The notes beneath the pieces were generated by a model. That model worked only from the letters and a program-made list of their open reading frames with translations. It had not been told where the DNA came from and did not search any database. The position numbers and the translations under genes are program-made. A DNA stretch of 64,000 bases from an uncultured Ignavibacteriales bacterium (lineage in GTDB: Bacteria; Bacteroidota; Ignavibacteria; Ignavibacteriales; Ignavibacteriaceae): NCBI GenBank assembly GCA_963751355.1, contig CAVVVS010000077.1, positions 1 to 64,000 on the forward strand, written 5' to 3'. Positions 1,677-43,485 of this stretch are shown piece by piece. How positions within the stretch are numbered: position 1 is the stretch's first letter; each line of letters opens with the position of its first letter.

Positions 1677-1720
1677 AATTTCTTTTTGAATTTAGTTTAA
1701 TGTATCGATGATTAACTCTG

Positions 1721-1765
1721 GAATCAATCGAGCAAAGGGATGAAAAAGGGACTACATCGTTTGGG
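1721..1765 (-). promoter_or_regulatory. Conserved upstream element, copy 1 (GAATCAATCGAGCAAAGGGATGAAAAAGGGACTACATCGTTTGGG)
   Basis: One of 9 near-identical copies. It lies 110 nt upstream of the start of 1231..1611 (minus strand). Confidence 0.5.
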
Positions 1766-2278
1766 TGAGCCGATACAAGAATTCGCCTATTAAATAGAGA
1801 GTAAAATCTGCGTGTAATAAATCGTTTTTATGCATAATTTAGGACTAAACAGCTAGCAATAAAATATCAGTCGGATGTGACTTTGGGTTCTAATTTTAGT
1901 ATTGCTGCATTACTTCTTAGATTGACTCAATTTGAATTGACATCGAAAGGTAAAAAGAAAATCTGCCCAAAGAATATCATCGTCTGTCATTCGATTTGCA
2001 TTTTTGTCAATCTATTTTTTTACCAATCTTTGGGCAGAAAAGCACCCTCTGTTGAAAGTCTTGACAGCATGGGGCTGGTTTTCTCTAAAAAGGATTAACT
2101 GCATGTATAGATTTCCGGAAAATATTCGGTTATATCTGTGTGTAATGTTATTCCTTCAATATCAGATATGTTTGTGAGAGGATATATATTCCACAATTAG
2201 TCATTTAAAATCAATAGTTCATTAGGATGAAAATAGAGTACATCTTTTGGATTAATTCTGTGCCCGTACTCAGCAATC

Positions 2279-3409
2279 CTATTTTTTCCGGCATTCCCAT
2301 CCTGAATGGTTCTGTTTGTATTTTGATCGGTCAAAATGTGCCGCTCGATAAAATACATCTAATCCAATACTCATCCCGGGCAGTAAGAATTCATGGATAT
2401 CGGCGCAATCGCAGTGCTCAATTGATACCGATGAAGTATGTATCTGTTCTTCCAAATTGGACAACGTATTATTATAAATTCCTATAACTGAATTTACATA
2501 TTTCTCTGTGCGGTTTACATTGTACACAACAACGCTAACAGTGGTTTGGATATTTCTTGTGAGCCGGTCAAATGATTTTTGTGCGAATCTTTTTGCAAAA
2601 GCATGCACATCTCCGTCCTGCAAACTAAGGTCCAGCCGCTGAAGCGAATTGATGTCTAAATAAGACAAATGAAGATTTTCGGGAGAGGCTATGATGGTTC
2701 GTGAAAATGATCCAAGTGTACCTATAGTGTAAGGTGTACCGCCAAAGCAAGTGGACAGTATAATGAGATCAAACTTTGAGGAATCAGTGGTGAAGCCGTG
2801 CAACCCGCTGGCAAGATCACTGACTGTGAATTTCCGATCCGGATACGATTCATCATAGTCCGCACCGCCGAACTCGGGTATTTCGTGGCCGCAGTAGATA
2901 AACATTCTTACCATTTTGTGCATATTAATTCCGTGGTAGCGCCGATACAACTCAACTTCGGGTTCTAATTTTGATAGCTTCTGATCGCGCCAGTACATTT
3001 CATGCACGATGAGCCGTCCGTTCCGGTAATAATAAAACTCTCCGTCTCGAAGAGGAAAAAAGAACAAGAAGTGTCGCAGTGGTTTTTGATGAAAGATGAA
3101 TACTTCGGCGCTGGGGTTTTGCTGTGCAACTCTTATTGCTCTTGCAAGTGCTTCCTCATCTGCCTGGTATTCTTTACCGGTGGTATCATGGAAGGAGTAG
3201 TCGCCGTCTCCGTGGAGGACGAATATCAATGAGTACTGCGGAGCGAAAACACTATCTTTAGCATGCTGAGATTCACTTTGAACAGTAAGATCGGCACTGC
3301 ATGAGGATAGAAAAACAATAAATGCCGCACAACCAAAACTAACCAGGAACTTTAAGTACCTGATGCCTCGTTCGGATTGGTTGTGCGAGTTTAGCATAAG
3401 ATTGTTCAT
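2279..3409 (-). CDS. Lipoprotein, possible clan CD (clostripain/gingipain-like) cysteine peptidase
   Basis: Lipobox FLSSCSA. The motifs hydrophobic-HG (LIFVLHGDGD) and hydrophobic-xC (LIILSTCFGG) resemble the His/Cys dyad of caspase-fold peptidases. The assignment is weak. Confidence 0.4.
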   Translation of the reverse strand: MNNLMLNSHNQSERGIRYLKFLVSFGCAAFIVFLSSCSADLTVQSESQHAKDSVFAPQYSLIFVLHGDGDYSFHDTTGKEYQADEEALARAIRVAQQNPSAEVFIFHQKPLRHFLFFFPLRDGEFYYYRNGRLIVHEMYWRDQKLSKLEPEVELYRRYHGINMHKMVRMFIYCGHEIPEFGGADYDESYPDRKFTVSDLASGLHGFTTDSSKFDLIILSTCFGGTPYTIGTLGSFSRTIIASPENLHLSYLDINSLQRLDLSLQDGDVHAFAKRFAQKSFDRLTRNIQTTVSVVVYNVNRTEKYVNSVIGIYNNTLSNLEEQIHTSSVSIEHCDCADIHEFLLPGMSIGLDVFYRAAHFDRSKYKQNHSGWECRKK

Positions 3410-3422
3410 TCCTAAAGAGATA

Positions 3423-3857
3423 TTATAATAAAAGTACTACCAGGATGATTATCAGAAGTAGAGCAACTAAACTGATAGTTATAGTTTGGGACGCCTGTTC
3501 CATATCCTGTACTACATAATTAGAAAAAGCATTCAGTTGTGCATCCGACACGCGCTCGTATCCATTTTTGCCTCCAAGTTCGTCTTTTTTCTCTTGAAGT
3601 GCGGTTTTGAAATGCTCAATACCTACGAGATCTTCTTTCGAAATCAGTCCTGAGCTTTCTACCTCGTCCAAAGCTCTGGACATGTTCTGAAATGCATCAT
3701 TTAGGATTTTACGCTTCTCGGATACATTCTCTGTTGCTTTTACTTTGTTTGCTGCATCGCTAAAGTATTTTTGAAGCTTATCTTTCCCGCCCGCATTTAC
3801 CGGGAGAGCTATAATAAACATCATAATGATAGATCCGATAACAATTCGTGCTTTCAT
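3423..3857 (-). CDS. Hypothetical secreted protein with a C-terminal hydrophobic anchor
   Basis: N-terminal signal peptide and C-terminal TM segment (LVALLLIIILVVLLL). It lies directly upstream of 2279..3409. Confidence 0.6.
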   Translation of the reverse strand: MKARIVIGSIIMMFIIALPVNAGGKDKLQKYFSDAANKVKATENVSEKRKILNDAFQNMSRALDEVESSGLISKEDLVGIEHFKTALQEKKDELGGKNGYERVSDAQLNAFSNYVVQDMEQASQTITISLVALLLIIILVVLLL

Positions 3858-4105
3858 TGTTGTTCCCTTTCATGGAGTTGAAACAAAATTGATTGATCAT
3901 CCGGTAGCATTGACATTTCGTTTACGATATAGTCTGTATCTCTCTGAACCAAAGTCAAAACATAAAGCATTATTATATGTCCTTCCTCTATAGCTGTTCG
4001 TAAACTATCACACTATTTGAGCAAAATATTTTTTTGCATTGGTGTTATCTTTTAGTTGTCGAGATAATTTATCCTATATAAGCTATCGAATAAATTGCAG
4101 CAAAG

Positions 4106-4148
4106 AAATCGACCAAAGGGATGAAAAAAGGATTACATCCTTTGGGGG
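4106..4148 (-). promoter_or_regulatory. Conserved upstream element, copy 2
   Basis: AAATCGACCAAAGGGATGAAAAAAGGATTACATCCTTTGGGGG, about 250 nt upstream of 3423..3857. Confidence 0.5.
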
Positions 4149-4358
4149 AGCACAACGGTAAAACTTAAGCAAAATGCAATCTTCATAAAGTTATTTAAGA
4201 AAAGCATGGGAAACCCACCACAGGATAATTTGTTTGGGGCGCTAAGCTTCTCAATTTTTCCGGAATGCATTTGTGCGGGATTAATAAAAAAATAATTTCT
4301 ACACACTTAAATTTTATTTAGTATAAAGAAGAGCTTAAGTATACAAAACTATCATAGC

Positions 4359-4967
4359 TTAAGTTTGTGTACGCACACGGCAAGTATAAACAAGAGCAGG
4401 GGGAATGTTGAAGAAAACGAATTCCAAATCGATGCTGATGAAATATTTTTTCAATATCGGTCGCAGAATCATGCCTTTTAAAATCGATAAGGTATGCATA
4501 TACTGGATAAAGATTCCGTCTTCTTTTAGCAAGGGTAAAACCTCATTCCTCAGCAGATCTTCAAATTTTAATGAAGACCAGGGAAGAGTGGAAATGATAC
4601 AATCAACACTCTCGGTTTGTAATCCGAAGCGGTTTAGAAGAACATTCCTGGAATTGAACACATTATTATTAAGAACAAAAACATTACTTTCATCTATATT
4701 TTTCTGAAGCGAATTGTAAAAGTTATTGTTTTTTTCAAAACAAATTAAAGTGCTATCCGGCTTCTTCCTTTTCAGAATCTCCCCGGTAACAGCCCCGCTG
4801 CCGGAACCATATTCTAGTATAATTTCTGCGGAATCGAAGGGGATAGTACTGACTAGACTTTTAATACAAGCAGGGGAATCCGGTGTAACGGATCCGATTT
4901 CTTTGAAGTACCGAACAGATTGATTTAAAAAATTGAAAGCACCAGTCTCTGTTCGTTGTTTTCTCAT
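4359..4967 (-). CDS. Class I SAM-dependent methyltransferase
   Basis: Glycine-rich SAM motif ILEYGSGSGAVTGEI. Confidence 0.6.
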   Translation of the reverse strand: MRKQRTETGAFNFLNQSVRYFKEIGSVTPDSPACIKSLVSTIPFDSAEIILEYGSGSGAVTGEILKRKKPDSTLICFEKNNNFYNSLQKNIDESNVFVLNNNVFNSRNVLLNRFGLQTESVDCIISTLPWSSLKFEDLLRNEVLPLLKEDGIFIQYMHTLSILKGMILRPILKKYFISIDLEFVFFNIPPALVYTCRVRTQT

Positions 4968-5229
4968 TCTTATCTTTCTTTATTATTTTTGACAGGCAAA
5001 TCAATATCACACAAGATCCGGTATAGATAATAATCTTTTATTTATGTATTAAAGGATTACCTGGCTTTTTCTTTAATCTATAAACTGAATATGTTTTCCG
5101 GATTACGCAACCTGTATTTTAATTCTTCAGCTTAATCCGGTATACTTGAAATGAACGCTATTATTGGATATGGTTGATTTGCAGATCCGCTTTTAATGTT
5201 TATTTTAACTTCTAAGCTATGAAGTTTAA

Positions 5230-5254
5230 TGATCAGTATCTTTGATACTGATCA
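5230..5254 (-). terminator. Perfect 11-bp-stem hairpin (TGATCAGTATC-TTT-GATACTGATCA), a probable terminator
   Basis: Lies 18 nt downstream of the stop of 5272..5493 on the minus strand. The U-tail is weak. Confidence 0.4.
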
Positions 5255-5271
5255 ATTCAGCAGCTATCTTG

Positions 5272-5493
5272 TCAAAAATCTTTTCTCTTTCCGGATAGAA
5301 AAATAATTCCACCGATTGCTACCATTGTTATGCCAAAAAACGGCGATCCAAATGCCGTATGCTCTTTAACATTTGTTACCCGAACATTGTCTATACTTAA
5401 TAATTTCCCTTTTGTTATATAATTAAATCCGGTATATAAGGTTATTAATAAACCCGTTATTAGTATGATGAAACCTATTGTTGTTGTTTTCAT
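5272..5493 (-). CDS. Small membrane protein (2 TM)
   Basis: Two hydrophobic helices. It sits in an operon position after 5537..6172. Confidence 0.5.
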   Translation of the reverse strand: MKTTTIGFIILITGLLITLYTGFNYITKGKLLSIDNVRVTNVKEHTAFGSPFFGITMVAIGGIIFLSGKRKDF

Positions 5494-5536
5494 GAATTCT
5501 CCTCTTTTTTCCCCCGTAATATCTTACGCTACATTT

Positions 5537-6172
5537 TTACTTCTTATCTTTAATAATATTATTTCGTACTAATTCATCGATTACAAGATCGGCAATATTT
5601 TTTTGAATATCTTTCCCGGAATTCCGGGCGGGAGTATTACTTATAGCGCCCCAAATTATTCGCCCTTTATTTCGTACGACCCAAACCTCTATTGAATGAC
5701 GGTTAACCATTTCAGAATCAATATATGCCGGGTGCTGAACTTCCTGATAATAAGTGGAATATGAATTCCTGAAGGGATTATATTTTAATTCCGCATCAGA
5801 GCTGATATAGCTCTCCACATAATGCGTTTGCGCTCCTTTATGAAGTACACGGATAACCAGGATTCCATCAAAATCGTTATTATGAATAGTTTGAATAATT
5901 TGATTAGTATCAGGTAATACATTTGGAAATAAAATGTAAGATGATGATGCTTCAACACCATGCTTTGAGAGATCGCCGGCAAAAGCATCCTCCCAAATTC
6001 TTCGTTGAACAGGATTTTTCCTTATCGCAATTACAAGTAGCTTTTTCAAGCGGTAATCATGATTTGATGGATCATTCCATACATCAACAAGTTCGGATGA
6101 AGAACAACTTTCGATCTGTATCATTAAGCAGCATAATGTCACTGCCATGATAAAGTTATTATAAAGTTTCAT
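5537..6172 (-). CDS. Hypothetical lipoprotein
   Basis: Signal peptide with lipobox IESCSSS. No recognisable domain. Confidence 0.6.
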   Translation of the reverse strand: MKLYNNFIMAVTLCCLMIQIESCSSSELVDVWNDPSNHDYRLKKLLVIAIRKNPVQRRIWEDAFAGDLSKHGVEASSSYILFPNVLPDTNQIIQTIHNNDFDGILVIRVLHKGAQTHYVESYISSDAELKYNPFRNSYSTYYQEVQHPAYIDSEMVNRHSIEVWVVRNKGRIIWGAISNTPARNSGKDIQKNIADLVIDELVRNNIIKDKK

Positions 6173-6473
6173 GATCTATCTTCTTTCCTGAACGGGGCAT
6201 ATTTAATTATTAGAACCTCTGCAGAATAAATATTTTACTCTATCGTCACTTCGACCAACGGGAGAAATCTTTCAATTCAAAAAGATTTGCAGCATTGGCC
6301 TACGAATTTCAGGCGATGACTCCTTCGAATCGTCGAATAAACTATTCTGCAGAGAATCTATTCTTTTCCTTATTATTTTAAGTAACACAAATTCATAATA
6401 TTTTAGGTGACATGAGTTAATAAGAAATCGGATATCACATAAACAATTTAAAACTCTCCAGAGATCTAAATTA

Positions 6474-6518
6474 ATTCAATGGAGCAAAGGGATGAAAAAG
6501 GGACTACATTTTATGGGG
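6474..6518 (-). promoter_or_regulatory. Conserved upstream element, copy 3
   Basis: AATTCAATGGAGCAAAGGGATGAAAAAGGGACTACATTTTATGGGG, about 300 nt upstream of 5537..6172. Confidence 0.5.
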
Positions 6519-6879
6519 AAATAGCTTTCTTGCAATGACCGGATTTTAGCAGAGGATTAAACAGAGAAAAAAAATATTTCCCTTGTTAGATTAAATACTC
6601 ACATTATTCTTACTTGTTCAAATATCGTCTTTTCTTCATAAATTTCCTTTTTCCTCTTTTTGTCGATCCCTTGAGAAAGACACTTCCGGAATAATTTAAG
6701 CAGGAACATAGTCTACGTAAAAAGATAGAACTACAATTTAGAAACAATACTTAATTTTCTTTTTTTACATTCACAATACTGTTGGAAAAATTCGGAATTA
6801 CATGACAAGTAGTTTTTATCGCTTTATGAAAAATGAGTTATATAACTTTTTATTTCCTTTAACATGATTAATAACTAAT

Positions 6880-6906
6880 AGAAGCGGCACGTTTAGTGCC
6901 GCTTCT
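6880..6906 (-). terminator. Rho-independent terminator for the OmpA-TSP3 operon
   Basis: Perfect 11-bp stem AGAAGCGGCAC-GTTTA-GTGCCGCTTCT, 30 nt downstream of the stop at 6935. Confidence 0.6.
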
Positions 6907-6934
6907 ACAAATGAGATTTATAACGATAAAAGAA

Positions 6935-8341
6935 TTACTTACCTTTTGAGATTAAATTTATCTCCACTCTTCTGTTCATAGCTCTTCCTTCAGATGTTGC
7001 GTTTGTAGCGATTGGATTTTCTTCACCATATGCTACTATTTTTAAACTACTTCTTTCAACGCCTTTGCGTGTAAGGTAGTCTACAACTGATTGAGCTCTT
7101 TCCCGTGAAAGATTCATATTATATCTTTTCGAACCTTTGCTATCTGTATAACCGGCGATTTCCCATTTGTAGTCAGGATGTGACTTCATAGTACTAATGA
7201 GATTATCAAGAGCGGTATAAGCACTGGGCAGCAGGGCTGACTTATTAAATTCAAAATTCGTATCGCCGCTAAGTACTAACGACTTTATTTCAACAGGTTT
7301 TGTGATTACAACAGTATCCTTCTTGATAGGACATCCTTCGGCATCTACCTGGGTTCCGGTTGGTGTATTAGGACATTTATCCAGATAGTCCGGAACACCA
7401 TCACCATCGGAATCAAGCGGACATCCGTTGGCATCTACCTTTACCCCTGCAGCCGTTTTAGAGCATTTATCGAGATAATCCGGGACACCGTCACCATCGG
7501 AATCAAGCGGACATCCGTTGGCATCTACTTTTACCCCTGCTGGTGTATTAAGGCATTTATCCAGATAATCCGGAACACCGTCACCGTCGGAATCAAGCGG
7601 ACATCCGTTATTATCTACTTTAACTCCTGTAGGAGTATTTGGGCAGTCATCTTTGGAATCTGGAATACCGTCACCGTCGGAATCCTTATCCCTGCCGAAG
7701 TAATAAGATATACCCGCAGTAATAGAGTACAGCATATCATTATTGGAACCGGACTTAATATCATCCCAATAATCTGTTTTCCCCATTATTATTCCACCAT
7801 TAACATTAATACTCATGTTTTTTGATATAATGAATCGTACGCCTACATCGCCATTAAAACCCATCGAATATTTGGTATAATTTCCGGCAACATTATTCGG
7901 CAACTGATTTCCGTCAGCGTCTTTTGGATCAAACCAAACATTGGAAAGTCCTACACCTATCCAGGGATATATATTATCATCTAACGAAAGAGCATAAAAA
8001 ATACCGCCGCCCCAAATATCAAATTTTGTTGAAAATTCATTTGTTGGATTCATAACAGTAGCTGGATTGCCTTTGCCTGCAATAAATCCCGTCTGTCCGA
8101 ATATTCTTAACCCAATATTTCCGGAACCGGTGGAGGGAAGATAGTATTCCAGGGATGCTTTACCGGTGTATTTAATTTTGGTATTTGAATAATCGGTAAG
8201 TCCGAATGTTATTCCACCTTCAGCTGTAAGGCCGAATACATTTGACATAGAATTTTGCTTTGGAATTTGAACCTCATCTTGCGCCATATTAAATTGAGTA
8301 AACCCCAAAAGTATTATCCAAATCAATGTAAATAGTTTCAT
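6935..8341 (-). CDS. OmpA-family outer membrane protein with an N-terminal beta-barrel, 4 thrombospondin type-3 (calcium-binding) repeats and a C-terminal OmpA domain
   Basis: Repeated DSDGDGVPDYLDKC units. C-terminal OmpA signature (AGYTDSKGSKRYNMNLSRERAQSV...NRRVEI). N-terminal signal peptide. Confidence 0.85.
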   Translation of the reverse strand: MKLFTLIWIILLGFTQFNMAQDEVQIPKQNSMSNVFGLTAEGGITFGLTDYSNTKIKYTGKASLEYYLPSTGSGNIGLRIFGQTGFIAGKGNPATVMNPTNEFSTKFDIWGGGIFYALSLDDNIYPWIGVGLSNVWFDPKDADGNQLPNNVAGNYTKYSMGFNGDVGVRFIISKNMSINVNGGIIMGKTDYWDDIKSGSNNDMLYSITAGISYYFGRDKDSDGDGIPDSKDDCPNTPTGVKVDNNGCPLDSDGDGVPDYLDKCLNTPAGVKVDANGCPLDSDGDGVPDYLDKCSKTAAGVKVDANGCPLDSDGDGVPDYLDKCPNTPTGTQVDAEGCPIKKDTVVITKPVEIKSLVLSGDTNFEFNKSALLPSAYTALDNLISTMKSHPDYKWEIAGYTDSKGSKRYNMNLSRERAQSVVDYLTRKGVERSSLKIVAYGEENPIATNATSEGRAMNRRVEINLISKGK

Positions 8342-8383
8342 TTAGATCTCCTTTTTTTTATAATTAAATACGATTATATCTTT

Positions 8384-8881
8384 TTATTGAAAGAAATATC
8401 TTATACCCAGACCGGCATCAAGCCCTAACCCTGTAAGCGGAGTAAGCTGAAATACCGGCACTAACTCGACGAATACATCTATCGGTGTTGAATGCGGAAA
8501 CCATGCTATGCCAAAAACACCTCTTATACCTATTGAAGCATCATAACCTCCGCCGCTGTTAAACCTTCCGCCTATTCCATAATAGAGAGGAAATCTTTCT
8601 GTTGCATTTATGGCATCGAATGAGTGCCAGAGATAATCCATGTGAAAATGGACTCGGTTTTGCCTATCGTAGTGACCTTCGTAATGGATACGATCTCCAC
8701 CAACGGACAAGCCAAGCCCGAAATCAAATGCATTTATCTTTGATGTCCAGAGTTTTGCACTCAACCCTGTCGGTTCTCCTAAAATAAGACCAAGCCCAAA
8801 TCCGTGATCCTGCGCCGCACTTGGTTTCGCAAATACAGCCATTATAACCAATACCATACAAAAAATAAGATTCTTATTCAT
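8384..8881 (-). CDS. Secreted glycine-rich protein, possible small outer-membrane beta-barrel
   Basis: Signal peptide, alternating Gly/aromatic pattern, C-terminal ...YFFQ. It lies 43 nt upstream of the OmpA-TSP3 gene. Confidence 0.55.
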   Translation of the reverse strand: MNKNLIFCMVLVIMAVFAKPSAAQDHGFGLGLILGEPTGLSAKLWTSKINAFDFGLGLSVGGDRIHYEGHYDRQNRVHFHMDYLWHSFDAINATERFPLYYGIGGRFNSGGGYDASIGIRGVFGIAWFPHSTPIDVFVELVPVFQLTPLTGLGLDAGLGIRYFFQ

Positions 8882-9027
8882 TAGTAAAATCCCTTTTATT
8901 AATTTCTATTTATTCCTATGTTGATTTGAGCATTCCTAAATCACTATGTCGTTTTCCAATAATGATTTTGCCAGCAATACAATCACTTTTTTCGTTCACA
9001 TAATAAGCTACATGAAGAAGCAAGGTA

Positions 9028-9070
9028 AATCAATCGGTCAAAAGGATGAAAAAGTAGTTAATCCTATAGA
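9028..9070 (-). promoter_or_regulatory. Conserved upstream element, copy 4 (diverged)
   Basis: AAATCAATCGGTCAAAAGGATGAAAAAGTAGTTAATCCTATAG, about 150 nt upstream of 8384..8881. Confidence 0.45.
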
Positions 9071-9289
9071 TCTATAACTACTTGTCTTTAACGAAAAAAT
9101 TTTGTGCCTTATGTATCCCTTTCTGTGGAAAAAATATTTAATAAAAGATTGATGGACGAGACTTCGCCCATGCGACAATGTCGCACCATGAATGCATGCG
9201 GTTTTACGCAATCATGATCCAAGAATATTTTGAATCATAAAATAAAATAAGATTGATGGTATTATACATTGCGTAAAAGGCTGCGATAA

Positions 9290-9415
9290 TTATTGATTGA
9301 GGATCCCCTGGTCTTTTTTCCCATATTTCTTTTCTCTTTTAGCTTCCTTTTTTTCTTTCATGGTTTTTGCCGGTTCTTTTTTAGAACCCTTTTTAGTATC
9401 ATGACTTTTGCTCAT
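9290..9415 (-). CDS. Small lysine-rich protein (41 aa), not present in the ORF track
   Basis: Minus-strand ORF MSKSHDTKKGSKKEPAKTMKEKKEAKREKKYGKKDQGILNQ. A GAGGT Shine-Dalgarno sits 8 nt upstream of the ATG. Confidence 0.35.
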   Translation of the reverse strand: MSKSHDTKKGSKKEPAKTMKEKKEAKREKKYGKKDQGILNQ

Positions 9416-9521
9416 TTTATTACCTCATTTGATGAATTATTAAATACACTTACCTGAACAGGAAATTAAACAACTCCGCAGATCCATTTCATAAATCGAC
9501 CATTAAGTTCACTTAAAATTT

Positions 9522-10208
9522 TCAATCTGCTATTGAAATATCTTTAGCAATCTTTTTCAGAGTTTCGTTTGAGTAAGAATAGTTTGCAACTTCCAAACGT
9601 GTATGCAATAGAAGCTTTTCCATTATATTATGAATATGGCTCTTAACCGTAAAAGTTGAAATGGACAGAGTTTGTGCAATCTCTTTGTTACTTAGTCCAT
9701 TGCCTATTAATCCGATAATCTCCCGCTCCCGTTTCGTCATACGAGTAGCTTCTTTCAACTTAACTCTACCGCCTTTAAGTGCATGCTCAACTATTTTTGA
9801 AAATAGCGATTCGGAAAAATTATTCGGAAGTACACTTTTACCTTCGGAAACTTCATGTATTGTGATAAGAAATTCATCGGGTGATGCATCTTTTAAAATA
9901 AAACCGGATGCACCGGCTTTGACAAATTGATTTATATCTTTCTGCACGGGTGCAAGATCCATCACAATTACCTTTGCATAGGGAAAATCCTTTTTTACGA
10001 CTTCTATCACGGTAAAACTATTTTGGTTGCGTAATCCCAAATCCAGAAGAATAATATCCGGCATTAATTTCTGTATTTTTAGAATGGTGTCCGCACTATT
10101 TCCGGATAACGAAATTACTTTTATATCTTTCTGCTTTTTAAGCATCGCAATAATTCCGTCGCGGAGCAGCCGGTTATCTTCGATTAAAAGCAATTTAATT
10201 TTTTTCAT
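9522..10208 (-). CDS. NarL/FixJ-family response regulator (REC + LuxR-type HTH), orphan
   Basis: REC domain with LLDLGL phospho-acceptor Asp. C-terminal LuxR HTH (REREIIGLIGNGLSNKEIAQTLSISTFTVKSHIHNIMEKL). No histidine kinase nearby. Confidence 0.85.
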   Translation of the reverse strand: MKKIKLLLIEDNRLLRDGIIAMLKKQKDIKVISLSGNSADTILKIQKLMPDIILLDLGLRNQNSFTVIEVVKKDFPYAKVIVMDLAPVQKDINQFVKAGASGFILKDASPDEFLITIHEVSEGKSVLPNNFSESLFSKIVEHALKGGRVKLKEATRMTKREREIIGLIGNGLSNKEIAQTLSISTFTVKSHIHNIMEKLLLHTRLEVANYSYSNETLKKIAKDISIAD

Positions 10209-10237
10209 AAAAAAAATCTATAGAATGATATACAAAA

Positions 10238-10280
10238 TTTCAATCGGGCAATAGAATGAAAAAGGATCTAGCTCTTTTGG
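10238..10280 (-). promoter_or_regulatory. Conserved upstream element, copy 5 (diverged), 30 nt upstream of the response regulator start
   Basis: TTTCAATCGGGCAATAGAATGAAAAAGGATCTAGCTCTTTTGG. Confidence 0.4.
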
Positions 10281-10577
10281 ACGAATAAATAATCAATCCC
10301 TAGTCACAATTTTGTTTATTCGCCAATTTTAAATGAATGAAACACTTTCCGAATTTATTTTAAGATTTAAGTAATTAGAACAAAAACGGACTAACCCGGG
10401 AGAGGCGGAAAGCCGTTTAATCAATCTCAGCGAGGCGCAGCCAATGGCAAAATAAAAGAATGAATGCATGCGGCTTCATGCAGTCAAATTTCAAGAATAT
10501 TTTGACAAAAAAACAATAATATGATTGCAGTTACTTTTTTATAAAATCTTTATTAAAAAAGATTTGAAAACCGCATT

Positions 10578-11480
10578 TCATTTGGTATCCAAAATAATAG
10601 GCAGCCCGTCTTTCCCGCTCCCAATAATTATAACCTTCGCATTGTTTGACTCCGCAATTTTCAAGGTTGCTTCAATCCCTTTCCAGCGAAGTAATTGTTC
10701 GCTGATGCCTGCAGCAACAATCGTCTGAAAATCGGCAATACCCTTTGCTTCAATTCGTTTCCGGTCAGCCTCTTGTTTTTCTTTAGTGAGGATGAATTCC
10801 ATCCTTTGGCTTTCCTGATCAGCTCGTTGCTTTTGCTCAATTGCCTCAGTTAGTTGTACCGGCAAAGCCACATTCCGTATGGGTGTATTCTCAATAGTAA
10901 CGCCCCGGGGAGCAACAGTTTTAGCCAGTTCTTCCTGAATAGCCGAGCCGAGCTGTTCCCTTTCGGTTGAATACAAAGCACTTGCCTGGAAACTTGCTGT
11001 TACTGAGCGGCTGATGGAACGAAACTGGGGAATGAGAATGATGGTTTCATAATCACCCCCGGCAACCGTTTTATAGACGCGAGCTGCGGAATCCGGGTTG
11101 AGCCTGTAAAGCGCACTTACTTCCAAACCGATTGTGAGACCTTCACGGGAAAGAACCTGCATAGTTTCTTTATGTTCTTTAGTCTGGATTGAATATTTTA
11201 TTACTCTTGCAAGCGGATTAACGATATTGATTCCCGAAGGTAGGGGCTTATCCGATACAATACCAAAAAAATCTACAACACCGACATGACCGGCGGGAAC
11301 CTGTGTGAAACACTGAAGCAACGCAATAATTCCGAAAAAACCCGCAACAAAAATGCTAACTTTACCAGCCGTATGAAATGCTATATTGTTTTGATTTATT
11401 TTCTTTTTTGTACCCATCCATACTAATATGGCAATTACGGCAATTAACAGTGATAAAATAAATATCATTCTAACCCCCAT
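10578..11480 (-). CDS. SPFH/band-7 (prohibitin/HflC-like) membrane protein
   Basis: N-terminal TM, SPFH core (QVPAGHVGVVDFFG...) and a C-terminal coiled-coil. Confidence 0.8.
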   Translation of the reverse strand: MGVRMIFILSLLIAVIAILVWMGTKKKINQNNIAFHTAGKVSIFVAGFFGIIALLQCFTQVPAGHVGVVDFFGIVSDKPLPSGINIVNPLARVIKYSIQTKEHKETMQVLSREGLTIGLEVSALYRLNPDSAARVYKTVAGGDYETIILIPQFRSISRSVTASFQASALYSTEREQLGSAIQEELAKTVAPRGVTIENTPIRNVALPVQLTEAIEQKQRADQESQRMEFILTKEKQEADRKRIEAKGIADFQTIVAAGISEQLLRWKGIEATLKIAESNNAKVIIIGSGKDGLPIILDTK

Positions 11481-11536
11481 TTAAAATTAATGTGCATTAT
11501 TAATTGCAATTTAAGATGCAACTAATTGGAATTGGT

Positions 11537-11582
11537 AATCAATCTATCAAAAGGATGAAAAATGGTCTAATGCTCAATTGGA
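11537..11582 (-). promoter_or_regulatory. Conserved upstream element, copy 6 (diverged)
   Basis: TAATCAATCTATCAAAAGGATGAAAAATGGTCTAATGCTCAATTGG, about 60 nt upstream of the SPFH gene. Confidence 0.4.
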
Positions 11583-11775
11583 ATAAAAAAACGATGCTTC
11601 CTATCTCGAGATTATTAGCTTTTCTGCAAAATAGTTTATTTATCATCTCGAAGAACTCATCGACTGAGATCTGCGCGCCTATGATGCAAATTTTTTAGAA
11701 TTGTGAAATTTCTCCCTTCGATAGAAATGACAATTAAGTAAAATATTTATTTCGCATAGATTCTAGTATAAATAT

Positions 11776-13257
11776 TTAATTAATGTTGTTTGAAACCTTC
11801 CGGAAATGATAACCATAGATAGAGAACATAATAGCGAGTGAAAAGAGTTTAGGCTTTATGAATAAAGACCAGAAGAAGAGTTTCCAGTAATAAAGTCTTT
11901 CCTTTCCGACGATACCTAATTTTAAAATTGATTTCATTAACGCTTGTATATAACTAGAATTTATATGGAATATTTTCTTTTTCTTAGGGTCAAAGTCTTT
12001 TAGAAAACTAGTAACGCGTTCATAATAATATTTGGGTGAATATATAGTATCCAGTATTTTTTTGTACCCTTCCATCAATAGTTCCGAGTTCATTTTTGGA
12101 ATAAAATTAATGGAAAAATCAGTATTGTTGCCTGTAAAATCGTTAAGCAGTCTTCCTTCCTTCTCCAATCGTTTATGAAGCTTGGTCCCTGCCGGGGCAT
12201 TTAACAGTCCTACCATTGCGGTAACTATTCCGCTTTTCTGAATAAATGCTGTAAGCTTTTCAAATATCGAAGCCGGATCATTGTCAAACCCAACAATAAA
12301 TCCTCCCTGAACTTCCAATCCGAATTGCTGAATCTTCTTTATGCTTAAGAGTAAATCGCGATTTCTGTTTTGTGTTTTGTTACATTCAAGTAAACTTTCT
12401 TCATTAGGTGATTCGATTCCGATGAATACAGCTTCAAACCCGGCTTTAACCATCAGCCGCATAAGCTCTTCATCATCGGCAAGATTAATTGAAGCCTCGG
12501 TGTTCAAGTAAAAAGGACTTTTCCTTTTTTCCATCCATTCTGCAATTGCCGGTAGAATTTCCTTTTTCAGCTTCGATTTATTCCCGATAAAATTATCATC
12601 TACAAAAAAGACAGGACCTTTCCACCCGCTAAAATACAATTGATCCAACTCGGCGATGACCTGCTCTTTGGTTTTGGTTCGTGGTTTTCTTCCGTAAAGA
12701 ACGGTTATATCGCAAAAATCACAGTCATAGGGACAGCCTCTTGAGTATTGAATATTCATTGACGAATAATCATTCATTGAAATTAGATCCCAGCTGGGCA
12801 GCGGGGTAGCGGCAATATCAGCCCATTGATCCGTAGTATAAATATGTTCCGGCTTTCCGGCATTCAAATCATTAATAAATTGTGGGAGAGTTATTTCGGC
12901 TTCTTTTAGTACCAAATAATCAACATTATCATAGTTTTCACTGAGGCTGGTAAAATGCGGTCCGCCTGCTACAATTTTTGTATTTAGTTCATTACATCTT
13001 CGTATCACCTCATTTGCCGATTGACTTTGAACGGACATGGCACTGATAAAAACATAATCAGCCCATAAGATATCATCATCTTTCAGTTCGGTTGTATTTA
13101 AATCAATAAGCTTTTTGTTAAAACCGGAAGGCAGTATAGATGCAATTGTTAATAATCCCAACGGCGGAAAACTTGCTTTTTTTGAAACAAATTTGAGCGC
13201 ATGTTTAAAGCTCCAAAAGGTGTCGGGGTAAACAGGGTATACTAAAAGGATATTCAT
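11776..13257 (-). CDS. B12-binding-domain radical SAM protein (DUF4070-type C-terminus)
   Basis: N-terminal B12-binding-like region (ILLVYPVYPDTFWSF...PPLGLLTIA). CxxxCxxC motif (CPYDCDFC). Confidence 0.8.
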   Translation of the reverse strand: MNILLVYPVYPDTFWSFKHALKFVSKKASFPPLGLLTIASILPSGFNKKLIDLNTTELKDDDILWADYVFISAMSVQSQSANEVIRRCNELNTKIVAGGPHFTSLSENYDNVDYLVLKEAEITLPQFINDLNAGKPEHIYTTDQWADIAATPLPSWDLISMNDYSSMNIQYSRGCPYDCDFCDITVLYGRKPRTKTKEQVIAELDQLYFSGWKGPVFFVDDNFIGNKSKLKKEILPAIAEWMEKRKSPFYLNTEASINLADDEELMRLMVKAGFEAVFIGIESPNEESLLECNKTQNRNRDLLLSIKKIQQFGLEVQGGFIVGFDNDPASIFEKLTAFIQKSGIVTAMVGLLNAPAGTKLHKRLEKEGRLLNDFTGNNTDFSINFIPKMNSELLMEGYKKILDTIYSPKYYYERVTSFLKDFDPKKKKIFHINSSYIQALMKSILKLGIVGKERLYYWKLFFWSLFIKPKLFSLAIMFSIYGYHFRKVSNNIN

Positions 13258-13290
13258 TAATTAACTCTTTAAGTCGTTATAAATATTTTC

Positions 13291-14835
13291 CTAAACAGCA
13301 ATTCGTTCGGCTATTGTTTTTAGATAAGCATTCTGATCATGGAATATTGCCCCTTCAGGAAGCCAATCCCACAGCGGTCCCAGTTCATTTTGAATAATGT
13401 CTTTATAGAATTGAGGAAGTTCGGTCGTTTGCTGTTCAAAATAGTCCCGGAATTTTGTATCTGAATTAAGCTGTGAAAGTATTTTTTTATTATATGCAAC
13501 TCTGCCGAAACCTTCCTCGGATATTGCGCGCACAACATTCATCCATCTAGGAATGAATGCTTTTGTTGCAATCAACCGTTTCATAATTGCGGCCCATGAA
13601 AAAGTATGTTCACCTAAGCTGATAGTATGAGCATAAAACTCCTGCCACGAATAATTTTTCGGTTTCACATTCATAGCATGATTATTATCCAGGAAATGAA
13701 ACGGGAACGGAAGTACCCGGTTTGATTCTTGATACTCGAGGTTTAGCGGCGCTGCCCTTCCGAATGCGGATAATAATGAATAGCCGGGAAATGCCCCGGG
13801 GGTCATATCTACGAATTTTTTAGTAAGTTCAAACGGCTCTTCGCCTTTGTCGGCGTCGAGTCCCAAAACAAAATTAGTTTGAACATACGGAATATATCGT
13901 AAGATCATGTTAACCTGTTCCGCGATCTGTTTAACCTTATCCATCCCGGTCGTACTTCCCGTTTTTGATTTGTTCCCGAGATCATACCACGATTCAATGC
14001 CCGGCAGCATGGCGCCGAACCCATTTCGTTTAAGCCGTTTTACATGAGGTTCGGACAGCAAGGATAAACTACTTTCTGCGATAAAATCTATGCTATTCAT
14101 GGGTACAACCTCCTCTATTGCATCCATGTATTCGTTAAACCGGATTCCAAAGTTCGGGTCATGCCATCCTACAAGAGGGCGTTTGAACTTTGTAAGCAGA
14201 AACGATAAGTCTTCCTTCAAAACATCAAAGTCAAGCGGCTGATACGCTACAGTTGAGTCAATACAGAAACTGCAGGTGTAAGGGCATCCTAAACTGCCGA
14301 GCATAGGGACCATTTTTATTAGCGGAGCCTTTTTGAGTGTCGGTTCAATAAATTTCCATCTCTCCTTAACCCCGGGAATTGATAAAGGGTGGTTTTGAGC
14401 CGTAAGATGCAGACCCGTGGGTCGGTGGGGTGAACAATCGTGCAAAATTTCATGAATAATATTTTTATCCGTAAACCCTGCAACATAATCGAAATATTTT
14501 ACCGAATCCTCCGGGTAGCAGCGTGCATGAGGTCCTCCCAACACAGTAACCGCACCGTGAGACCGAAGGAGATTACTTAAAGCATAAGCTGTTTGTGCTG
14601 CTTCGGTAAACGCACATATAAAAATTAAATCGGCATTCTGCGGCAGTTCTTTTATTAGATCCTCTTTGCCTGTATAACAAATATAGGTGACGTTATGACC
14701 CTCTTCTTCACACCACACTCCTACAACTTGCGGCATTATACTTGCAAAGTTCGCATTCATTATGCGCGCAAATAATTTTTTGTTAGGCTTTTTTGAAACA
14801 AGGTCTATTATTCCTACCTGAAGTTTGCGACTCAT
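13291..14835 (-). CDS. B12-binding-domain radical SAM protein
   Basis: CxxxCxxC motif (CPYTCSFC). Same architecture as its neighbour. The two are in tandem with a 33-nt gap. Confidence 0.8.
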   Translation of the reverse strand: MSRKLQVGIIDLVSKKPNKKLFARIMNANFASIMPQVVGVWCEEEGHNVTYICYTGKEDLIKELPQNADLIFICAFTEAAQTAYALSNLLRSHGAVTVLGGPHARCYPEDSVKYFDYVAGFTDKNIIHEILHDCSPHRPTGLHLTAQNHPLSIPGVKERWKFIEPTLKKAPLIKMVPMLGSLGCPYTCSFCIDSTVAYQPLDFDVLKEDLSFLLTKFKRPLVGWHDPNFGIRFNEYMDAIEEVVPMNSIDFIAESSLSLLSEPHVKRLKRNGFGAMLPGIESWYDLGNKSKTGSTTGMDKVKQIAEQVNMILRYIPYVQTNFVLGLDADKGEEPFELTKKFVDMTPGAFPGYSLLSAFGRAAPLNLEYQESNRVLPFPFHFLDNNHAMNVKPKNYSWQEFYAHTISLGEHTFSWAAIMKRLIATKAFIPRWMNVVRAISEEGFGRVAYNKKILSQLNSDTKFRDYFEQQTTELPQFYKDIIQNELGPLWDWLPEGAIFHDQNAYLKTIAERIAV

Positions 14836-15078
14836 GTAAAACCCTATTTTTACTCATCTATATATTAACGACTTTTACACCAAGTGTTATAAATTACTTT
14901 TTGTAATCCTGAATATTGCCGAAGGTATGCCCATGGGTAATCAAAATCACTTTTCATGAGTACAAGATTCAACAAGATTTTTGCAAAACATTGGTTATCA
15001 ATATAGATTATTTGAACGGATATTGTCCGTTGAACTATGCTGCTGTTATCAGTCAGCTTTAATTGTCAATAAGATATA

Positions 15079-15135
15079 AAAATCTCATTCGATATAAATG
15101 GTTCAAACGGATGAAAAAGGGATTAATCCTAAAGG
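15079..15135 (-). promoter_or_regulatory. Conserved upstream element, copy 7, about 270 nt upstream of the radical SAM pair
   Basis: AAATCTCATTCGAT..CAAACGGATGAAAAAGGGATTAATCCTAAAGG, with a 12-nt insertion in the 5' box. Confidence 0.45.
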
Positions 15136-15472
15136 ATGATAATTTTTGCTGCACCATTTTCCAAATCCTTTGTATAGATTGGTTTGATTATTGCGATAAT
15201 AGCGCCATATGTTGTACCGAATTTAATATTTTTCGTTTAAAATTATTAATTTATAACTCGGTGAAACCGGAACTGAATGAAAGAATAGAGTTTTGTTTTT
15301 ATGCAATTTCTATTACAATTTAAGCAGGTATACGTCCATGCCGCCGCAGCTTTCTCGATATCAAAAAAATATCCAACATTTTTCTAAGAATTTCAGTATA
15401 AAGAAGTTAATTGCATTTTACCGCTCTGTCTGTTCCATGTTTTCTGTTAAATATGTTATTAGACCTTCTAGA

Positions 15473-15850
15473 TTATTTTTTGTGATTCATTTTGTAGCCC
15501 GACATCTTCATTGGTTTTGTACTGTCACCCATCATGCTGAGGGCTTTTGGAGTCACATCGTTTATACTTGTTTTTTGATCTACCATACTCGAAACTATGG
15601 AATTCATCTCAGGATTATCCATTATTGATCTTCCGAGCTTAGTCATTTCTATTTTGTTGCCGGTTGTTTTATCCAACAACATTGCCATCATCATACTCCG
15701 CAATTCGGAATCTGACGATATTTTAGTCATCCATTCTTTAGTCTGAGCATTTATTTCTGTTTTGTCATTATTGCTTTTGACCTGTGCAATTAATGGTATA
15801 GACATTAATGCTAAGAATAATATTAAATATTTCATTTTTCTGCCTGTCAT
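15473..15850 (-). CDS. Secreted methionine-rich protein, possible metal-binding (copper?) periplasmic protein
   Basis: The likely true start is MKYLILFLALMSIPLIAQ at 15835. There are multiple Met clusters (MMMAML, SMMGDS, KPMKMSGYKMNH). Confidence 0.5.
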   Translation of the reverse strand: MTGRKMKYLILFLALMSIPLIAQVKSNNDKTEINAQTKEWMTKISSDSELRSMMMAMLLDKTTGNKIEMTKLGRSIMDNPEMNSIVSSMVDQKTSINDVTPKALSMMGDSTKPMKMSGYKMNHKK

Positions 15851-15950
15851 TTTTTATGGCTATATAAAATTCAAATTAATTTTGAGGGAATTTCGTAGGG
15901 ATCTGCATAAACTTTCAAATAATTATTTCCTGTTTATAATGAAGACGGAT

Positions 15951-16139
15951 CTATTCCAGTTTATCAATCATTGTAATAACTTCTGTTTTAGTTTTTGATA
16001 ATTTTTCCTGTAACTTCGTCAATAGGTCGCGTTCATCGCCGTTGTTTAATTTTAAATCGTCTGCCGTTATTGTTGGATATGCAAGTCTAATTTTTTCTTT
16101 AAGAGCAAGCCAATTCCCTTTATTATTTATCTGGTACAT
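15951..16139 (-). CDS. Small hypothetical protein (62 aa)
   Basis: ORF-track entry that lies 65 nt downstream of element copy 8. Confidence 0.4.
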   Translation of the reverse strand: MYQINNKGNWLALKEKIRLAYPTITADDLKLNNGDERDLLTKLQEKLSKTKTEVITMIDKLE

Positions 16140-16189
16140 ATTAGAGCCTCTTTTTGGTTATTAAGTATTAATATATTACGGAGAAAGGG

Positions 16190-16241
16190 AAAGTAAGTAA
16201 ATAGGGCAAAGGGATGAAAAAGGGACTAATCCTTTTATTGG
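16190..16241 (-). promoter_or_regulatory. Conserved upstream element, copy 8 (best consensus match)
   Basis: AAGTAAATAGGGCAAAGGGATGAAAAAGGGACTAATCCTTTTATTGG. Confidence 0.5.
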
Positions 16242-16379
16242 ATGTGTCATGTTACGCAGCAATGTTTATAATATTATTCTATTATCTCGATAACATCGCA
16301 GCACAGAATAGTTGCCTGTGCCGCGAAACTAAATTATGCCGGTCATTACTCAACATGACCGAGTAGATAAATATAATAG

Positions 16380-16850
16380 TTATTTCGATTGAATCTTTTT
16401 AGCCATTTTATCTTTTTCAAAAGATATTGCGATACAAACATTTCTTACGGATTCATTAGTTGAATTATTAGCCGCTTCATAAATTGCATGATCACCAATA
16501 TCTGAATGAAGTTCATCCAGTGCAATGGCTGCAGTTATGCGTAATTGGACACCTAATTTTTCATTTTTTACGATGTCCATCAAAGGTTTAACAAATGTAC
16601 TAAATGAGTTGTCGGGGAAAATCTGCTCAAGTTCCCAGAGTGTTTGCACTGATGATAATTTTACGTTTGTAGAACCATCCTGTAAATGTTGTAAAAGCAT
16701 TTTTTCTGTATTTTTCAAATTCTTCTTTAAAGTTTCAGAATTATGTTGTTCCGAAAAACGCGTTGGTCTATCCTGTGCAAAAGATAATGTACTCGCAAAG
16801 AAGAAAAGTAATGACATTGAAAGAACTAATGAGAATATGTGATTTTTCAT
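16380..16850 (-). CDS. Secreted HEAT/armadillo-like repeat protein
   Basis: Signal peptide and helical repeat-like segments (LRITAAIALDEL, VRNVCIAI). Confidence 0.5.
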   Translation of the reverse strand: MKNHIFSLVLSMSLLFFFASTLSFAQDRPTRFSEQHNSETLKKNLKNTEKMLLQHLQDGSTNVKLSSVQTLWELEQIFPDNSFSTFVKPLMDIVKNEKLGVQLRITAAIALDELHSDIGDHAIYEAANNSTNESVRNVCIAISFEKDKMAKKIQSK

Positions 16851-16985
16851 TTTAGTAACCCCTTATGTTTATTAATAATTAATTTGTTTTATTAGCCGGT
16901 CTAATTTTTTTTACAGAGATATGCAAACTGGCTGCATACTTATGGTTTTTAATTTAGGTGATTAATGTTAATAATAATGGAAAGT

Positions 16986-17036
16986 AAATGATTGATCAAT
17001 AGTACAAAGGGATGAAAAAGGGATTAATCCTCTTGC
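16986..17036 (-). promoter_or_regulatory. Conserved upstream element, copy 9, which overlaps the last 4 codons and the stop of response regulator 17024..17755
   Basis: AAGTAAATGATTGATCAATAGTACAAAGGGATGAAAAAGGGATTAATCCTCTTGC, about 150 nt upstream of 16380..16850. Confidence 0.5.
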
Positions 17037-17755: not shown

Positions 17756-18416
17756 TTATTAATATATGTAATTTATTATGATGATTCAAATTATATTATG
17801 CAAGCTAATTGATTCAAATAATTATTTAAACGATCATTCATCCTAAATGATGCACGAATATTATGTAAAAGGTAAAAATTCTTAAATCACCTAATTGAAG
17901 AATATTAAAAGTTAGTTGAAAAAATACTGCGGATGAAAATAGAATATTTGCCAAAATAATAACCGAAATAAATTGTCGTTTTGCCTGTCCGGAATTAACC
18001 ATTTCTTTTATTATTGTAAGAATCAGTAGTAATATATAATCTATAATTGCTTAAGTAAGATAGTTTTAACATTAGATATTGTTTTACATGAGTTAACGGA
18101 ATAATTAAAAACATTAATTTAACCTAATTTTAAATTAACCATCTAAGGCTTTAAACCCAAATAAGTTCCGAATTCCACAGCAAGTCTCGACAAGTCGGGA
18201 AATTTTCACTAATTTTATTTATGCAAATTAATATCATTTGTCATGTTGACCTGCCCAGGGAGGGAAAATTTTCAAAATTGTTCGAATCATAAACCTTGAG
18301 ATTCTTCAACACCTAAGCCGGGTTAGAGGGACAAAAGTAAATCATTTCTCTTTTCACGAGTGACTTGAGTTATTAATCAAATAATCGAATTAAATAGATG
18401 AAATAAAATTAATAAC

Positions 18417-43187: not shown

Positions 43188-43485
43188 TGCTTTATTTTAT
43201 GATTAAAGAGGAAAATAAGGGATATTTGAATTGACTCAGTCTTTCACAATTTATTATATCTTTTATTCGTAACATTTTTATATAAAGATCGATGCTCACC
43301 CGGGCGTCCTCGTCGGAAGTTTGTGTATTATATATTCTAAAAACTTCAGGTTTTCATCCCATTGAAGGATTTGTTTTGATATTATTTGCCTTATGTTGGC
43401 AGGATTATTCAATAATATTCAACCGTAACATTATTCTTCAAATATTAATAAACCAATATTGTAACAATCCTAAATCTAGTAAGAT

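Follow-up and report, generated by a model that had tools for sequence, protein, structure and literature searches.

The first 17 kb of a 64,000-nucleotide stretch of DNA from an uncultured Ignavibacteriales bacterium (contig CAVVVS010000077.1; the whole stretch is called the window below) contain nine copies of a conserved element of about 48 bp, located upstream of genes for envelope and secreted proteins and for a NarL-type response regulator (RR). We propose, with a probability of roughly 0.6, that every copy makes up the upstream half of a composite promoter/operator which is of the sigma-70 type and depends on an activator, that these promoters serve a stress and envelope regulon extending through the phylum, and that two paralogous NarL-type regulators encoded in the window, RR1 and RR2, bind the element. 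The proposal is built on the architecture of the element, its conservation, its orientation and position relative to genes, its linkage to the regulator genes and the content of the genes downstream. This comparative evidence favours the promoter/operator of a dedicated regulator which the initial annotation of the window had suggested, with the NarL-type regulators as candidates, and binding by these regulators is what we infer from it.

Repeat finding and a profile search both gave exactly nine copies, all in gene orientation, i.e. on the minus strand, with profile E-values of 4e-15 to 1e-6 for the 64-kb window. The best further profile match in the remaining 47 kb had an E-value of 0.023. 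When a 15-mer core was matched with up to three mismatches, 12 matches were obtained compared to 2.98 expected, and none of 100 shuffles reached 12. The number and common orientation of the copies were as first annotated, and so were the direct repeat AAAGGGA-N4-AAAGGGA of the plus strand (TCCCTTT-N4-TCCCTTT in gene orientation) and the inverted arm. Six of the start coordinates given at that time were within 3 nt of ours, while three (15079, 16190 and 16986) were 6 to 14 nt too low.

The exact 22-mer TARTCCYTTTTTCATCCNTTTG was scanned against species-representative genomes and was found in at least 119 stretches of 8 kb each (L001 to L119), to which the following counts refer. The stretches come from about 91 assemblies at species level, nearly all of them Ignavibacteriota, and the metagenome-assembled genomes (MAGs) among them are labelled Ignavibacteriales, Ignavibacteriaceae, Melioribacteraceae or generically 'Bacteroidetes'. 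A profile search of the stretches gave 241 copies, one to six per 8 kb. The copies were mostly intergenic (221 of 241, 92 %) and the next gene was co-oriented in 200 of 220 cases (91 %), with a median distance of 84 nt from the predicted transcription start site (TSS) to the start codon. A tabulation of orientation and distance had been named as a check of the first reading, and its result is in line with a promoter element. On long contigs separate matches are only 8 to 56 kb apart, indicating that the clustering in islands is conserved too.

In gene orientation, with position 0 set at the T of TAGTCCC, the consensus is cTCAcCCAAAAGATG-TAGTCCCTTTTTCATCCyTTTG-nnCGATTGA; after a spacer of 17 nt, TAnnnT and then a purine are found in fixed register. 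The half-site AAAGGGAT is present three times within positions -15 to +21, namely as H1 in forward direction at -8 to -1 and, in reverse direction, as H2 at 2 to 9 and H3 at 13 to 20, with an offset of 11 bp between H2 and H3. CGATTGA at 24 to 30 holds the -35 TTG (27 to 29), and the -10 TAnnnT is located at 50 to 55. The purine at 62 is the predicted +1, relative to which the element would span roughly -77 to -33 of a promoter of the sigma-70 type. In a subclass of the copies H1 and H2 together form a perfect 7-2-7 palindrome, AAGGGAT-TA-ATCCCTT (AAAGGGAT-TA-ATCCCTTT), centred 61.5 bp upstream of the predicted start (-61.5), as in L020, L054, L057, L067, L076 and L105. The palindromic subclass also has a conserved -35 region and spacer (GGCTATTCCC...AATCATCrGTAT), was seen in L020, L024, L026, L054, L057, L067, L068, L076, L089 and L105, and probably consists of promoters that belong to orthologues of one small gene, in a separate lineage with several MAGs labelled Chitinophagaceae.

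The conservation of these positions was assessed from 130 distinct exact-core copies, in which the conserved flanks were not part of the search pattern. G was present at -4 in 119 copies, A at 26 in 129, T at 27 in 128, T at 50 in 109, A at 51 in 121, T at 55 in 119 and a purine at 62 in 96. The same logo, including the -10 box, was obtained from 107 non-exact copies (237 distinct copies altogether). As the -10 box was outside the search profile, its conservation is independent of the way in which the copies were found. In the window TAnnnT is in the exact register in six of the nine copies, and copy 7 has it with a spacer 1 nt shorter. The -10 box is weak, with no preference for A at its fourth and fifth positions, which fits a dependence on an activator. 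A Bacteroidota-type sigma-A promoter (-33 TTTG / -7 TAnnTTTG) was considered and rejected, since the -10 is TAnnnT, G occurs at 57 in 12 of 130 copies and the spacing is 17 nt; with TAnnnT at this canonical spacing from TTG, the core promoter would be of the ordinary sigma-70 type. A consensus promoter scan independently called copy 5 (TTGAAA-17-TAGATT, 10243-10215) and copy 9 (TTGATC-17-TATTAT, 16999-16971), although the scan was not discriminating in the window (65 sites compared to 67.8 expected from shuffles) and recovered, among the relevant sites, only these two copies and the RR2 promoter.

The RR genes adjoining the element probably encode its binders. In an all-against-all clustering of 924 open reading frames (ORFs) the RR family was the largest cluster, with 95 members in 57 of the 119 stretches, and it was the only DNA-binding family enriched beside the element. 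Full-length homologues of RR1 and RR2, 43 to 75 % identical, were present in 44 of the stretches. Across the phylum the full-length sequences form two paralogue groups, 19 of RR1 type and 21 of RR2 type, and both groups share a near-invariant recognition helix, T-x-K-S-H-x-H-N-I-x-E-K-L. RR1 and RR2 are far below every NCBIfam equivalog cut-off (141 compared to 250 bits for NarL, the best NCBIfam match), and the closest solved structures are those of NarL, VraR and DevR. In the receivers of RR1, RR2 and their homologues neither the acidic pocket nor the phospho-acceptor Asp has been lost, and the conserved Lys is present too.

The two genes differ in their relation to the element. RR1-type genes are directly element-driven in many genomes, which strengthens the earlier suggestion that RR1, under copy 5, may be autoregulated. 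The RR1-type ATG is within 1 nt of the predicted +1 (positions 61 to 62) in the window and in L002, L043, L077, L087, L104 and L021/L046, and 64 to 137 nt downstream in more distant genomes. Since the predicted TSS of copy 5 coincides with the A of the start codon, the RR1 mRNA would be leaderless. RR2-type genes have no element upstream, and at 16 loci the element begins 25 to 130 nt after their stop codon. In the window RR2, for which ATG 17734 is the probable start codon and not TTG 17755, has its own near-consensus sigma-70 promoter (TTGAAT-N16-TATAAT, 17817-17790), indicating that the genome makes use of the ordinary sigma-70 consensus. Two overlapping near-consensus promoters, TTGAAT-N16-TATAAT and TTGAAT-N17-TATATT, can be seen upstream of RR2 at 17761-17817 (minus strand). 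The element had initially been placed ahead of every minus-strand unit, which does not hold for RR2 and probably not for the methyltransferase gene at 4359-4967, which follows a 305-nt gap.

Two further features were noted near RR1. RR1 and the SPFH gene share, in their 3' regions, a paralogous segment of about 70 nt (9188-9255 and 10460-10527, 76 % identical); it holds 14 identical nucleotides, TCAAAATATTCTTG, and a hairpin-forming ...CCGCATGCATTCAT, overlaps or adjoins terminator-like hairpins, and could be a shared terminator or 3' untranslated region (3'UTR) module, or a small RNA. Downstream of RR1 a 41-aa Lys-rich ORF (MSKSHDTKKGSKKEPAKTMKEKKEAKREKKYGKKDQGILNQ, 9290-9415, minus strand) is located within an otherwise ORF-free stretch of 440 nt.

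In the window the Pfam search agreed with the gene identities first given (OmpA + DUF4398, C11-like, OmpA-TSP3, SPFH, two B12-radical-SAM enzymes and two REC + GerE regulators). Copy 8 is followed first by a CsbD-like 62-aa ORF, and not by the gene of the Met-rich protein. In the listed stretches the first ORFs downstream of 115 copies were searched against Pfam, and the downstream gene families were found to recur across genomes instead of varying. The families included CsbD (8 copies), KaiC (5), B12-radical-SAM with DUF4070 (4 to 5), MlaE (4), OmpA/TSP3 (4), response regulators (3 to 4) and, with 3 copies each, ice-binding-like, PAS, DUF6600, YtxH and rubrerythrin; the SPFH protein was also among the recurrent downstream genes. 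Neighbourhood clusters were a metallophosphoesterase with a type IX secretion system (T9SS) tail in 26 stretches, an AI-2E transporter in 18 and, further, MlaFED, hibernation-promoting factor (HPF), bacterioferritin and an sll1863-family stress protein. From the predicted proteins, this content reads as a general-stress and envelope-remodelling programme.

In several Ignavibacteriota genomes a KaiC homologue of about 578 aa is element-driven and adjoins RR2-type genes, often followed by mlaEFD (L009:1027-2763, L010:4095-5834, L013:1863-3596, L022:6402-8000, L083 and L115). It passes the equivalog cut-off for KaiC (PRK09302, 728 compared to 408 bits). No KaiA, KaiB or SasA was noticed at the KaiC loci. 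In L083, from a MAG of candidate division KSB1 (JAFGEC010000273.1), a full element and promoter drive KaiC, and an RR of 48 % identity is encoded nearby; either the system extends beyond Ignavibacteriota or this contig has been mis-binned. The match in Membranihabitans maritimus (L108) has neither CGATTG nor the flanking conservation and is likely due to chance. In L002 (4972-7232) and L104 (3571-5794), the closest relatives of the window among the matches listed, an element drives an operon in which the genes for rubrerythrin and for an unknown protein of 124 aa are followed by that for an RpoS/RpoD-like group-2 sigma factor of 286 aa. In L021/L046 this sigma factor gene is convergent to or beside RR1. 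KaiC, the sigma factor and MlaE/D were sought in the window and none was found.

In the mechanism that we envisage, RR2 would be made constitutively from its own strong promoter. On a signal, the regulators would occupy the half-site array, at about -70 to -41, as dimers or higher oligomers, and would contact RNA polymerase at the adjacent -35, recruiting it to otherwise weak promoters, which would be activated and not repressed. RR1 would be made from an element promoter, its mRNA being leaderless here and in the closer relatives, and as its own promoter would be among the activated set, positive feedback would be expected. The output would be a clustered general-stress and envelope regulon which in the window would consist of OmpA/DUF4398/TSP3 proteins, lipoproteins, the SPFH protein, the CsbD-like protein and the B12-radical-SAM enzymes, and to which KaiC, YtxH, HPF, bacterioferritin, rubrerythrin, MlaFED and the RpoS-like sigma factor would be added elsewhere.

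Several observations weigh against this reading. The 7-2-7 palindrome is clear in one subclass only, since in the majority of the copies H1 is shifted and imperfect (AAAAGATG), and copies 3 and 6 of the window have no good -10 at the expected register. A26 and T27 are near-invariant (about 99 %) and G29 is present in about 72 %, a pattern that a plain -35 hexamer would not show. Over 56 nt the information content amounts to about 52 bits, a value inflated by how the copies were found; as a single dimer of the NarL type would need far less, further proteins or constraints must play a part. These extra constraints could be, for example, a higher-order RR oligomer, contacts with the C-terminal domain of the polymerase alpha subunit (alpha-CTD) or with sigma region 4, or another factor. 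In the window pair and 40 homologues the conserved Thr/Ser switch residue of the receiver (NarL S87) is replaced by Asp, with at least 80 % conservation, and no histidine kinase linked to the RR genes was found among their neighbours in the window or the listed stretches. The counts, finally, refer to stretches of 8 kb.

It is possible, if somewhat unlikely, that the element is a promoter-associated operator read by a factor other than the linked regulators, whose genes would then merely be conserved members of the regulon. This factor might be an unlinked global regulator, or an RpoS-like group-2 sigma factor reading CGATTGA...TAnnnT and an extended upstream element. The excess of information over the need of one RR dimer would suit such a factor, the pattern of CGATTG, with A26 and T27 so much more constant than G29, hints at a specific recognition of the -35 region, and the sigma factor gene of L002 and L104, also found beside RR1 in L021/L046, would supply a candidate. 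Yet this gene was present in 4 of the 119 listed stretches, compared to 57 for the RR family. As regards a regulon of an alternative sigma factor, hallmark stress proteins are present and CGATTG is unusually constrained, while an RpoS-like sigma factor is occasional and both the -35 and -10 sequences and their spacing are of the ordinary sigma-70 type, of which the element-less RR2 promoter is an example in the same genome. The half-site array with its 7-2-7 palindrome, on the other hand, is what dimers of LuxR-type helix-turn-helix (HTH) domains would fit.

In a further-reaching form of our proposal, which we consider unlikely, RR1, RR2 and the KaiC linked to them would constitute, together with the element, the master switch of a general stress or dormancy response of Ignavibacteriota and possibly of neighbouring lineages of the Fibrobacteres-Chlorobi-Bacteroidetes (FCB) group such as KSB1. 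A KaiC-family ATPase/autokinase would replace the histidine kinase and, as an energy or time sensor, would control the two atypical, kinase-less NarL-type regulators, which would assemble as a higher-order complex on the 48-bp composite promoter module. If true, general stress would be controlled here in a new way, which differs from the sigma-B, RpoS and PhyR-EcfG systems.

A second role of the element at the 3' end of the upstream gene, in which H1/H2 and a T-tract would act as a weak intrinsic terminator or insulator separating tandem units, is very unlikely. Such a role would account for the element being located tight behind the RR2 stop codon, both at the 16 loci mentioned above and in the window, where it overlaps the stop region, and the palindromic subclass (AAAGGGAT-TA-ATCCCTTTTT) could fold as a short hairpin followed by T residues. 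However, the sense strand of the consensus folds at only -2.2 kcal/mol (-6.1 kcal/mol for the antisense strand), RNAalifold gave no consensus structure, the H1 arm is imperfect in most copies, its pair -5/17 being most often an A-C mismatch, and the window contains separate, better terminator-like hairpins.

A structured cis-regulatory RNA co-transcribed with the downstream genes, i.e. the 5' leader proposed as one interpretation in the initial annotation, is extremely improbable, even though the sequence and orientation are conserved upstream of genes and an imperfect inverted repeat is present. The whole window had no match in Rfam (cmscan, gathering thresholds), and RNAalifold, applied to 120 copies, predicted no structure for either strand (E = 0). 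Compensatory base changes, for which a search had been recommended, were not seen: the only variable stem pair (-5/17) was A-C in 61 copies, A-T in 27, G-T in 15 and G-C in 10, that is, without covariation and with a mismatch as the commonest state. The conserved -35/-10 pair is downstream of the element, which would thus be upstream of the predicted start, and as the RR1-type ATG is at the predicted +1, about 40 nt past the core, in the loci named above, the element cannot be in the leader of those units.

Least credible of all is a mobile or selfish repeat, similar to miniature inverted-repeat transposable elements (MITEs) or repetitive extragenic palindromic (REP) sequences, or an integron attC-like site between gene cassettes, for although many copies in the same orientation separate short one- or two-gene units in the 17-kb array, about 91 genomes at species level have kept the sequence in fixed register to the promoter boxes, 91 % of the copies are co-oriented with the next gene, the downstream families recur across genomes, Pfam showed no transposase or integrase among the island genes of the window, the element has no fold of its own and single loci elsewhere hold both orientations. 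MITE-like behaviour, disfavoured from the beginning, is excluded by the position relative to genes and the conservation across species. An integron attC or CRISPR-type array was likewise rejected, the latter as in the initial annotation, the spacing between copies being irregular (798 to 3556 nt), with no fold and no integrase or Cas protein among the island ORFs.

The copies of the window are listed in Table 1 together with the RR genes.

Table 1 Element copies, with predicted promoters and genes downstream, and other features of the window
Feature	Coordinates (strand)	Repeat start (+)	Position 0 (+)	Element	-35	Spacer	-10	Predicted TSS	Genes downstream; remarks
Copy 1	1692..1770 (-)	1724	1754	1722-1770	TTGATT	17 nt	TACATT	1692	DUF4398 lipoprotein 1231-1611, OmpA-DUF4398 protein 409-1227; predicted 5'UTR 81 nt
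Copy 2	4073..4151 (-)	4105	4135	4103-4151	CGATTTC (region)		TAGCTT	4073	Secreted 144-aa protein 3423-3857, C11-like protein 2279-3409; predicted 5'UTR 216 nt
Copy 3	6444..6522 (-)	6476	6506	6474-6522	TTGAAT		Poor (GAGTTT) at expected register		Lipoprotein 5537-6172, 73-aa membrane protein 5272-5493; predicted 5'UTR 272 nt
Copy 4	8998..9076 (-)	9030	9060	9028-9076	TTGATT		TAGCTT	8998	Gly-rich barrel candidate 8384-8881, OmpA-TSP3 protein 6935-8341; strong terminator-like hairpin 6908-6878 at unit end
Copy 5	10208..10286 (-)	10240	10270	10238-10286	TTGAAA	17 nt	TAGATT	10208	RR1 9522-10208; predicted TSS is the A of the RR1 start codon
Copy 6	11507..11585 (-)	11539	11569	11537-11587	TTGATT		Poor at expected register		SPFH/Band-7 protein 10578-11480; most degenerate copy (E = 1e-6)
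Copy 7	15063..15141 (-)	15095	15125	15093-15141	CCATTTA (region)	1 nt shorter	TATCTT		Tandem B12-binding radical SAM genes 13291-14835 and 11776-13257; predicted 5'UTR ~228 nt
Copy 8	16166..16244 (-)	16198	16228	16196-16244			TAATAT	16166	CsbD-like 62-aa ORF 15951-16139, then Met-rich secreted protein 15473-15850
Copy 9	16964..17042 (-)	16996	17026	16994-17041	TTGATC	17 nt	TATTAT	16964	HEAT-like secreted protein 16380-16850; element overlaps last codons of RR2
Degenerate tenth copy	2209-2254 (-)								None obvious; AATCAATAGTTCATTAGGATGAAAATAGAG... on + strand; E = 2.4, not significant
RR1	9522..10208 (-)								NarL/FixJ family, REC + GerE HTH (Pfam); element-driven; candidate binder of element
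RR2	17024..17755 (-)								Paralogous NarL family, REC + GerE; no element upstream
Terminator-like hairpins	379-355, 6908-6878, 9171-9152, 10482-10465								At the ends of several units

Since terminator-like hairpins close several of the units, the array in the window can be described as a series of promoter, gene or genes, and terminator. The predicted 5'UTRs of units other than RR1 are 27 to 272 nt long, and in the long ones of copies 2, 3 and 7 no convincing small ORF was found. The degenerate match at 2209-2254 is possibly a decayed copy; having no downstream gene, it was treated as chance or decayed, as was a weak match at 43351-43371 (plus strand), in front of which is the 3' end of a gene in convergent orientation. 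The 17 kb had also been described as set apart from the rest of the window, which the GC content does not bear out (0.32 to 0.41 compared to 0.29 to 0.40 elsewhere). No tRNA genes, sought as a reference for housekeeping promoters, were found in the window. Inside the OmpA-TSP3 gene three tandem 90-nt repeats (7329-7684, 78 to 84 % identical) encode thrombospondin type-3 repeats.

Members of the Ignavibacteriota occur widely in sediments, soils, wastewater and the subsurface, and their gene regulation is almost unstudied. In a literature search no description was found of the motif or of any stress regulon in the phylum, and nothing relevant on regulons, KaiC or response regulators in Ignavibacteria. 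An element that marks a regulon by its sequence alone would enable the annotation of co-regulated stress and envelope genes in hundreds of MAGs, including such unknowns as the B12-radical-SAM pair, the Met-rich protein and the DUF4398 lipoproteins, and two specific candidate regulators can be nominated. The element promoter could also offer a strong, portable and inducible genetic tool for Ignavibacteriota. If the link to KaiC is true, an experimentally tractable output pathway of a non-cyanobacterial KaiC would become available.

Of the known systems, the operators of NarL and RcsB are similar in several respects. E. coli NarL uses 7-2-7 heptamer sites, and the RcsB box is located just upstream of the -35. 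The regulators linked to our element are likewise REC + GerE proteins with best matches to NarL, VraR and DevR, a subclass of the elements has a perfect 7-2-7 inverted repeat, and the element abuts the -35. Two paralogous regulators with the same recognition helix are reminiscent of RcsB with its auxiliary partners. In contrast to NarL, both the half-site AAAGGGAT and the helix residues K-S-H-x-H-N are different, the regulators are below the equivalog cut-offs and have no linked kinase, and their receivers have Asp at the Thr/Ser position. The third half-site in direct repeat, together with conserved spacers, makes up a 48-bp module that is almost invariant across the phylum, unlike the operators of the NarL/FixJ family.

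DosR/DevR of Mycobacterium tuberculosis is an autoregulated regulator of dormancy with a 20-bp palindrome and the cognate kinases DosS and DosT, and has dozens of clustered genes for stress or dormancy under its control. The system described here would similarly consist of an autoregulated NarL-family regulator and clustered stress or dormancy genes, reached via a conserved motif upstream of weak promoters; the phylum, the motif and the gene content are different, and kinases are available for DosR. The general stress regulons of sigma-B in Bacillus, RpoS in E. coli and PhyR-NepR-EcfG in Alphaproteobacteria are defined by the -35 and -10 of the alternative sigma factor itself. CsbD, YtxH, HPF, ferritin-like proteins, rubrerythrin and OmpA-like proteins resemble their content, whereas here the core promoter is of the sigma-70 type, the specificity would be in the upstream operator and an RpoS-like sigma factor is only occasional. 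In the output of cyanobacterial KaiC the kinase SasA feeds RpaA, an OmpR-type regulator. In several genomes of our set a KaiC homologue adjoins the RR genes and is element-driven; in contrast to the cyanobacteria, the regulators are of the NarL type, no KaiA, KaiB or SasA was seen and the window itself has no KaiC, and a functional link between KaiC and the regulators is speculative.

By analogy, the system appears to work like a regulon of the NarL/RcsB/DosR type. The regulators are not NarL, RcsB or DosR themselves, as the equivalog scores are not reached and the motif is different, and the regulon does not seem to be one defined by a sigma factor. Three things about the system are unusual: the information content of the element is very high, the element is conserved through the phylum, and the paralogous regulators form a pair without a kinase, in some cases linked to KaiC.

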